A stretch of DNA of 63,782 bases, the filler included, from Collodictyon triciliatum (Eukaryota), in the NCBI GenBank assembly GCA_043381765.1. It is 8 parts of 8 records of this genome, joined end to end, with 100 filler letters (N's around TTAATTAATTAA, not from the genome) between each part and the next. Parts side by side here need not be neighbours in the genome. Positions count along the whole stretch, not along the records: positions 59,499 to 63,782 come from JBHJMP010003514.1; 7 more parts are not named here. One strand, written 5' to 3'. This document shows, in pieces, positions 59,637 to 62,600 of the stretch. Numbering within the stretch: position 1 is the first letter of the stretch; each line of letters starts with the position of its first letter. A program made the translations under genes and the position numbers. The notes beneath the pieces were generated by a model. The model saw nothing but the letters and a program-made list of their open reading frames with translations, searched no databases and was not told the DNA's origin.

Positions 59637-62600
59637 ATTCGACATCAAGTGGACGAGCTTTTACGGGCTGAATTAGTGGCACTCAAAATGGCACAGGAGA
59701 AAGAAAAAGGTTCTGATTTTTTCACCTCAATTCCCAATCGCCAAATTTCATGTCATTGATGCAAAAGAGAATTTATATTCAATACACTTTCTTCAATAAA
59801 TCGAACAAGACTTTGAAACCAGCACACCTTAACCTATGAATACCGTTAGGAAAAGGGAAAGGCAAAGGGAAAGGCAAGGGAAAAGGAAAAGGGGGAAAAG
59901 CAGGAGGAAAAGGGAAGGGGAAAGGAAAGGGGAAAGGGAAAGGAAAGGGGAAAGGCAAAGGAGGAAAAAGGGTTAGTGCATTTATAGCATTCAAAATCAT
60001 ATACTCATATGTTATTCTTCATATTCGATTCGGTCAAATGCATAAGTTAAGCGCTTACGTAATCAAAAAAATTCCTCCAGAATAAAGATTTAACCGGAGA
60101 CCGAACGATAGAGTCAATCTACGCGGAGCTTGTAATGCACGATATAATCAGAAAGGTATCTCTTCAATAAGTTATATTTGTGGGAACAGTGCAGTGAAAT
60201 CTTAAATATAATCTGTTCCTTTTCTTTCCCTTCGCTCATACTTATTCAAGTCAATTACAAGTTGCACAGTCAGCATCGAGCCCGAGATTGAATACATGAA
60301 TTAACGGCTAGTTAAACAGCACAATAGAGTAAGCGTCAACGACTTCATAGGAGAATACTACTCGTTGAACGGGATGCTTCGCAAAGGGAAGGACGAGATT
60401 TATCCGTCTTTGGCTGAAGTGCGACAGGTCTGCATATAGTTTTTGACATACGAGAAGCCGATGTTCGTGTGCAAAAGAAAAAAATTACACGGAAGCTCCT
60501 AACAGTCAAGAGATGTCTCAATAGATATATACATGTTGATGACAATTTGAGTAACATCTTGTATATGCGTGTTCATTAGGCTGCCACGATATATGGCATC
60601 CTTCCCATGGGTTCTTCAAACATACACGCAAAAAGCCCACTAATCAAATCTCTTCTTTTCTACGGACCACATGGTTCAGGTATTCATTCTGATGATTTAT
60701 GGAGAATAATTTTAAGACACTTATTCACATGCCATGTCGAATCTATGTATTGATTTTCTTTTTACATGCGGAACCACAGGCAAATCAATGCTTACGCACG
60801 CAATCGCTACGGAGCTAGGAGCTAATTTCTTTGATCTATCTCCATATGCCATCGCTGGAAAGGTGGAATTTAACTTCATATTATAATTTTCAATGGAATA
60901 TCCTGCCATTTTAGTTTTAAAACCTCTAGTATTTTTCTTTTCTTTTCGTTTCATTCCATTTCTTCATTTATGTGTTCATTTCTTACTATTTCGTGTTAGT
61001 TCAAGGGCACGGCTATGAAGCTCGCTTTGCACATGGTATTCAAAGTGGCCCGTGTTATGTCGCCATCAGTTATTTATATTGACGACGCAGACAAAGTGTT
61101 TGCCTCGGAAAAGTATAACTACCTATACTTTCTTTCTTTCTTTCTTTCTTTCTTTCTTTCTTTCTTTCTTTCTTTCTTTCTTTCTTTCTTTCTTTCTTTC
61201 TTTCTTTCTTTCTTTCTTTCTTTCTTTCTTTCTCTCCGAATATCGAAATGTGAAATTAAGTAATAGTTATGTGTAACTTAATCGTTCCTTCTTTAATCAA
61301 CTAATTCCTCTCTTACAAAGGAAAAAGAAAGACGGCGGGGACAATCCGTCACGCATGAAGAAGGACCTTATAGCCCAGCTGAAAACCGTGAATGGTAGAT
61401 GTTTTGTCATTTTTCTCTCTTTCATTATTGATCTCTGACACATGCATAAACCTTACAATCTTTGCGAATATACAGCCGGAGACCGTGTCATCGTCATAGG
61501 AAACTCCAGAAAGCCTTTTGATATCCTTTCAAATAGTGTATACTAATACAAATATCTGACCGCTTATTTATTATATATTGACCTTTTACTTTGCAGAGGA
61601 ATATTTAATTTTCAATTTTCATTATTTTTTTTTTTGTGAAAAACTAACAACACCTGTTTGTCTTAATGGGCAAAATATAAATGTAAATATATGCTTTCTT
61701 TATTTTCATTTTTTCTTTTAAAAAAATTAAATGAATAAAGAAGAGCAACAACTACATAAGCCCTTGACTTAGCAAACATGCAGATTTCAAGTCTATTTCT
61801 GGCTTTTTCAACAAGCAGATTTACATTTGCCCACCAGATTATTGTAATCGCCGGGTTCTGTGGAAGGAATCAATCGAGAGATTCGGAGTGAATACTATGA
61901 CATCGATTGATCTGCAGGGCCTGGCGCATTTGTCGAAAAGCTGCACCGGTGGAATGGTCCGTCCTTTACTCTTTTCAGAACACGTTTCCTCAGGATATCA
62001 TTTTGCACTTGATTATTTTGTTGATTTATCTTTTTTAAAAAGAATGTGATTCAGACACAATGACACATTATTACTACAATTGGTTTATCGCAAAGCCTAC
62101 TGAATCATTATTTCCTTCTTTTTTTTTTTAAAAAAAAAATTACGAATGAATCACTTTTATCAAAATATCAACAACTTTATGATGGCCTTAGATATGGGGT
62201 ATTCTAAACAAAATCCTTGTACCACTGCGCATAAAGAAGGTAAACCGTTTCATTCATTTAAACATTCATTTTTTTCTCAAAAAATATTATATCTTCCAGG
62301 AACCTACATTTCAACTTTTATTCCCTTCCTGTTTAATGCCTTTTTTCGCTTAGTTGGAATATCGACCCCTCAATATCGAAGAGATTGTTGTGCAACTTGC
62401 TCGTGTGGAACCGCTCTCATCAAGTGAATTGGATTCATTCAAGGTACCCACCAAAGACACGTTTCGTATCATCGTTTTTTTTATATTGGTCAACGAGAAG
62501 AGAGAGAGAGAGAGTAAAAGGATGTACTTTGTGCCTCAAATACGTACATATCTATCTAGTTAATATCCAGTAATGTTCAACAATGCATATTCTTCCATCT

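Follow-up and report, generated by a model that had tools for sequence, protein, structure and literature searches.

The segment at positions 61521-61777 (+), which interrupts the AAA ATPase domain of the gene for DRC11/IQCA1, is an authentic AT-AC intron of the U12 type and of phase 1, and we hold this assignment with high confidence. It lies in a window (the whole stretch of DNA that was analysed) of 63,782 nt. The observed basis for the U12-type call consists of (i) sequence signals, (ii) exact excision of the segment in transcripts and (iii) a spliced product that runs colinear with relatives of DRC11. DRC11/IQCA1 is a subunit of the nexin-dynein regulatory complex of motile cilia. Since U12-type excision of an AT-AC intron would demand a working minor spliceosome encoded by the host, the presence of a canonical and correctly spliced U12 intron strongly implies that the host has retained this machinery.

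The intron, the ninth of the gene model, is 257 nt long, with a G+C content of 24%. Its 5' splice site ATATCCTTT (61521-61529) matches the U12 donor in 9 of 9 letters (consensus [A/G]TATCCTT), and the branch site CCTTGAC (61762-61768) matches CCTTRAC in 7 of 7, with 61767 as the presumed branch adenosine, at a distance of 10 nt from the intron's 3' end. In the longer form of the branch-site consensus, TTCCTT[G/A]AC near the 3' end, the two preceding letters are GC here, not TT. The intron-terminal AC (61776-61777) is defined by both the sequence and the transcript joint. An earlier note on this DNA had claimed such a combination of a U12 donor and a CCTTRAC branch site, at a place where the coding frame breaks at ...CCTTTTG|ATATCCTTTC (61520|61521) and resumes at CCCTTGACTTAGCAAAC|ATGCAG (61777|61778), and reading the sequence anew bears out both the signals and the break. 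The upstream frame (61478-61519) translates as GDRVIVIGNSRKPF, and the downstream frame (61780-61962; P0001) as ADFKSISGFFNKQIYICPPDY..., opening ADFKSISGFF...; the codon split between them, G|AT, encodes Asp and the intron is therefore of phase 1. For the donor 9-mer and a CCTTRAC located 8-16 nt before the 3' end, both at fixed places, the joint chance is ~1e-8 given the base composition; the count of RTATCCTTT in the window (3 vs 1.69 expected, with 3 reached in 20 of 100 shuffles) is by itself not above chance. The pyrimidine fraction at positions -25 to -4 (0.55) is inside the range of the 11 GT-AG introns of the same gene (0.41-0.77). Following the textbook scheme of U12 splicing, U11 and later U6atac would pair with the ATATCCTT donor, U12 would pair with CCTTGAC, bulging the branch adenosine, and the short distance from the branch to the 3' end would select AC.

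The 3' part of the DRC11/IQCA1 gene was modelled at 59637-62812 (+), with 13 exons, 411 open codons and 12 introns (11 GT-AG and one AT-AC). Introns 8-11 are backed by transcript joints and loose contig ends fit introns 7 and 12, while exons 1-7 and their introns are a sequence-based prediction, apart from the loose end fitting the intron 7 joint. Since the contig opens only at ~59499, behind an N run (59440-59498) with the six-frame-stop linker TTAATTAATTAA, it lacks the 5' part of the gene, where the N-terminal IQ motif region of DRC11/IQCA1 would be expected. This linker was also seen near 8600, 17077 and 50983, and the window is thus a chain of contigs. Immediately upstream of the AT-AC intron lies exon 9 (61476-61520, +; 45 nt), which covers the AAA sensor-1 region and is supported by its translation and by contig pieces at 61475-61520 from two sequencing runs (X1 and X2). 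Downstream of it lies exon 10 (61778-61956, +; 179 nt), covering the AAA lid region and supported by P0001, by contig pieces from three runs (X1, X2 and X3) and by matches to DRC11/IQCA1 in the PDB. The donors of the 11 GT-AG introns (59710-62689) have little in common beyond GT, with G at +5 in 3 of the 11; donors as degenerate as these are, we presume, unlike those of animals or fungi. Within the predicted intron 3 (60156-60319), the donor GTATCTCTT and a TTAAC placed 16 nt before AG look faintly U12-like, and this donor departs from the U12 consensus at +6 and +7. Intron 7 contains a long (CTTT)n microsatellite (61126-61232), and simple repeats are abundant throughout the window.

AT-AC termini alone leave the spliceosome type unfixed, and excision by the major (U2-type) spliceosome would make the intron silent on the minor one. 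Such a reading would fit the result of the Rfam scan of the window, which gave no matches at the gathering score; the window holds no snRNA (hence no minor snRNA) and no rRNA. At E<=1, the segment 61450-61850 returned only a chance-level match to a Listeria sRNA (21 bits vs 40). U2-type AT-AC introns, however, are not known to carry the TATCCTT/TCCTT donor core or a CCTTRAC branch site near the 3' end; they share with 61521-61777 the AT and AC termini, whereas the donor core and the branch site are both present here, complete in every letter and with the branch adenosine 10 nt from the 3' end. Removal by the major spliceosome, which we regard as very improbable, is further disfavoured by the GT donors of the remaining 11 introns, which are weakly conserved and quite unlike this one.

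An equally small probability is given to excision by a minor-like machinery in transformed or reduced form, of the sort proposed for Physarum or Cyanophora, in place of the canonical set of four snRNAs. According to the consulted parts of the two sources, such systems do exist: in Cyanophora U11 was the only minor snRNA found, and Physarum has an altered U12 and uses TTTGA as its branch site (PMC10639083; bioRxiv 10.1101/2020.10.12.336362). The unusually degenerate donors of the 11 GT-AG introns would also agree with a machinery of this kind. Against it stand the classic branch site CCTTGAC of the intron described here, a site present in just 20 of the 3,648 introns with a perfect U12 donor in the Physarum data consulted, and the GT-AG donors themselves, of which only three carry G at +5, vs GTNNG in Physarum (bioRxiv 10.1101/2020.10.12.336362). 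A canonical U12-type intron thus remains the preferred reading.

Transcript contigs of four public runs (X1-X4) were compared with 61260-62680. Runs X1 and X2 come from one study, and the kind of run is recorded only as 'RNA?'; the material consists of contigs, not raw reads, in which splicing efficiency and rare alternative joints are invisible. The exact removal of the intron between 61520 and 61778, proposed in the earlier note as a check, was recovered in two of the four runs, the contigs of X1 and X2 each skipping 257 nt with AT..AC as the termini used. The X1 contig (2312 nt, depth 58.2, with 1547 nt upstream of 61317) joins 61520 to 61778 and also drops the GT-AG introns 8 (61395-61475, +; 81 nt), 10 (61957-62191, +; 235 nt) and 11 (62240-62353, +; 114 nt). 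The X2 contig (371 nt, depth 7.62) has the same joint and also drops intron 8, and a second X2 contig drops introns 10 and 11. The loss of these neighbouring GT-AG introns indicates that the contigs of both runs represent spliced RNA and not DNA. One X2 contig has a loose end formed by a 22-letter string, which we take to be the end of the SMART template-switching oligo. At the joint 61520->61778 there are 46 letters on the shorter side, and no extra letters or gaps were reported. Run X3, a lake-water metatranscriptome from another study, covers 61814-61956 and then continues with 8 loose letters fitting the next exon, and the AT-AC joint lies outside its contig; X4 yielded no contig matching 61260-62680.

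The position of the joint is ambiguous by at most 2 letters ('both' = 2), the dinucleotide AT standing after either boundary, and AT..AC is the only placement that agrees with the U12 consensus. Near the intron there are 12 frame-preserving GT/GC..AG alternatives (e.g. 61536-61783), none of which is used by the contigs, and with these so close by it is plausible that standard gene predictors would mis-model the gene at this place. An artefactual joint, produced at the two-letter repeat AT when the reverse transcriptase switched templates or the contigs were misassembled, or else stemming from a DNA deletion variant, would be in keeping with the two letters that fit either side and with the use of contigs from a single study instead of raw reads, but it is the least credible of the alternatives, since a two-letter repeat is very short for template switching, the identical joint occurs in two runs in contigs that are also devoid of canonical GT-AG introns, the joint restores both the frame and the DRC11 alignment, and it coincides with a full set of U12 signals (chance ~1e-8).

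The naming of the gene as DRC11/IQCA1 stood up to comparison with solved structures, in which DRC11/IQCA1 chains rank first for three separate exons (10, 4 and 7). Exon 10 matched 5 PDB chains at E<=1, the top 4 being DRC11/IQCA1 (8glv_Ea, 6.6e-6; 8j07_11, 7.7e-4; 9fqr_Ok, 2.2e-3; 8th8_L, 0.014); 9fqr_Ok is IQCA1 and, judging by the entry codes, 8glv_Ea is presumably the Chlamydomonas and 8th8_L the Tetrahymena DRC11. Both of the two matches of exon 4 are to IQCA1 and DRC11 (residues 510-547), and DRC11/IQCA1 makes up the top 3 of the 56 matches of exon 7. The same PDB search gave no matches for the ORF around exon 9 or for exon 12. Exons 4, 7 and 10 are colinear with residues 510-547, 613-643 and 688-744 of the human DRC11 chain (8j07 chain 11), and the 45 residues from residue 35 of exon 7 to residue 2 of exon 10 equal the human spacing (643 to 688).

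Among 1.84 billion representative proteins, 9 matched exon 10 at E<=0.001, including the spliced fragment P0002, 67% identical and at the level of the closest relative when the ORF from the same locus is set aside, and the 863-aa protein P0007. The latter gives end-to-end matches to solved DRC11 chains (E 3.5e-106 to 2.3e-87), and the spliced DRC11 model aligns with it across the joint (E 2.7e-48). With P0009 the alignment (163 aa, E 4e-32) spans the split Asp (residue 265) and is gapless at the joint, where P0006 and P0007 carry short insertions. In P0003, a green-alga-like DRC11 fragment, 9 unrelated residues are followed by an alignment starting from the residue after the AT-AC intron. A break of this sort may mark the start of an exon, and hence an intron, at most 1-2 codons from the AT-AC intron position; on a bold and rather unlikely reading, that position would be ancient. 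P0008, a 50-aa ORF corresponding to 61897-62049 of the window, has 22 aligned residues identical to the end of exon 10 and continues into intron 10 with two differing residues; its near-identity shows that a very close strain or species is present in public DNA data. A search for longer proteins homologous to exon 10 gave none. In metagenome contigs 323 pattern stretches matched exon 10 and none was confirmed as a relative, and in the protein atlas the exon fell only into unnamed or AAA-like eukaryote clusters.

The spliced model carries a C-terminal AAA ATPase domain, as seen from near-cut-off Pfam scores together with Walker motifs. Exons 6 and 7 scored 19.3 and 19.4 bits against AAA (PF00004), just below the cut-off of 21.2 (E 0.0016; both are short pieces), Walker A is completed across intron 5 and Walker B is located in exon 7 (61000-61112). 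The latter reads IYIDDAD, with Asp at the position usually occupied by the catalytic Glu of AAA ATPases, whereas the aligned place is IDEAE in Chlamydomonas DRC11 and IEDTE in the human protein. Judged from this motif, the ATPase may be inactive or altered here. Lys-Gly repeats occur before the AAA domain (59850-59971) and at the C-terminus (62760-62812), and also in the relatives P0002, P0007 and P0010.

The scans of the window yielded no second convincing U12 intron. Three strict donor matches were rejected, as they lie inside an exon (6289, -), in non-coding sequence (38363, -) and inside a GT-AG intron (53454, +), respectively. A relaxed scan, allowing one donor mismatch and a loose branch site, requiring open frames on both sides and excluding the last 3 kb of either strand, returned 65 candidates, of which the few inspected clash with coding exons or strand. 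Elsewhere in the window, four long intronless ORFs were noted by their Pfam matches: a 1350-aa ORF (54897-58946, -) combining Sel1 repeats with many WD40 repeats, in which pentapeptide-like repeats and, at the C-terminus, a (Q-E-N-E)-like repeat were recognized by eye; a polycystin-type cation channel (27626-30301, -), without a usable match in the protein atlas; a 918-aa leucine-rich-repeat protein (30496-33249, -); and a VWA-domain protein (9391-11247, +).

Backed by transcripts, the AT-AC intron of DRC11 would set the host among lineages in which the second spliceosome was retained, and it marks a spot where gene finders limited to GT-AG introns would probably produce a wrong model of a conserved cilium gene. 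Its broader significance hinges on the lineage of the host and is modest unless that lineage was thought to be without minor splicing. On a rather unlikely reading, the host would be a flagellate that has been little sampled and belongs to a lineage where minor splicing is undocumented or thought lost; were it so, a functioning minor spliceosome would be evidenced in that lineage for the first time by this intron. Three features point in this direction, as hints only: the 67% identity of the closest relative, the degenerate GT donors and the occurrence of the transcript in a lake-water metatranscriptome. In the consulted parts of a recent survey, minor introns are reported from 1172 of 1844 genera (Larue and Roy 2023, PMC10639083), which makes an intron of this kind ordinary, and none are reported from Ochrophyta, Alveolata or Discoba (PMC10639083).

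Neither IQCA1 nor Iqca occurs in the 8 supplement files of PMC6717393, whose human and mouse minor-intron tables do contain IFT80 and TMEM107; as far as these tables go, the DRC11 AT-AC intron is not catalogued, nor is the mammalian gene catalogued with a U12 intron. Relative to the mammalian catalogues, the only ones compared, conservation of the U12 position was not found, and it is not needed for U12 membership. There were likewise no occurrences of IQCA1 or DRC11 in the consulted supplements of PMC11347168 and PMC10639083, neither zero being decisive, and the consulted sheets of PMC11347168 list responsive introns. A search of full-text literature, with the supplements of other papers and of bioRxiv preprints outside its scope, found no link of IQCA1 or DRC11 with U12 or minor introns. 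The intron, in a gene uncatalogued and with no such link in the literature searched, thus offers a data point on the gain, loss or conversion of minor introns.

Comparison with two known systems places the intron more closely. As described in the consulted parts of the work on Physarum polycephalum (Larue, Elias and Roy; bioRxiv 10.1101/2020.10.12.336362), this species shares with the present case a [G/A]TATC[C/T]TTT donor, AT-AC introns (of which Physarum has many) and a short distance from the branch adenosine to the 3' end (9-12 nt in Physarum, 10 nt here). The published Physarum annotation contains GY-AG introns only, a pattern that, in the authors' reading, reflects the discarding of non-GY-AG introns. 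However, Physarum has TTTGA in place of CCTTRAC and ~20,899 such introns, while here the branch site is classic and one intron was found in 64 kb. On the data consulted, this difference, together with that between the U2-type donors of the two systems, leads us to reject a Physarum-like system. The AT-AC minor intron of IFT80 (Olthof et al. 2019, PMC6717393) provides a close likeness in the tables consulted: the gene and the host differ, as does the length (2839 nt in human and 3537 nt in mouse vs 257 nt in DRC11), but IFT80 is also a cilium gene, the AT-AC termini are common to both introns, the nine-letter donor is the same and the branch-site core of the mouse intron, CCTTGAC, is identical to that of the DRC11 intron.
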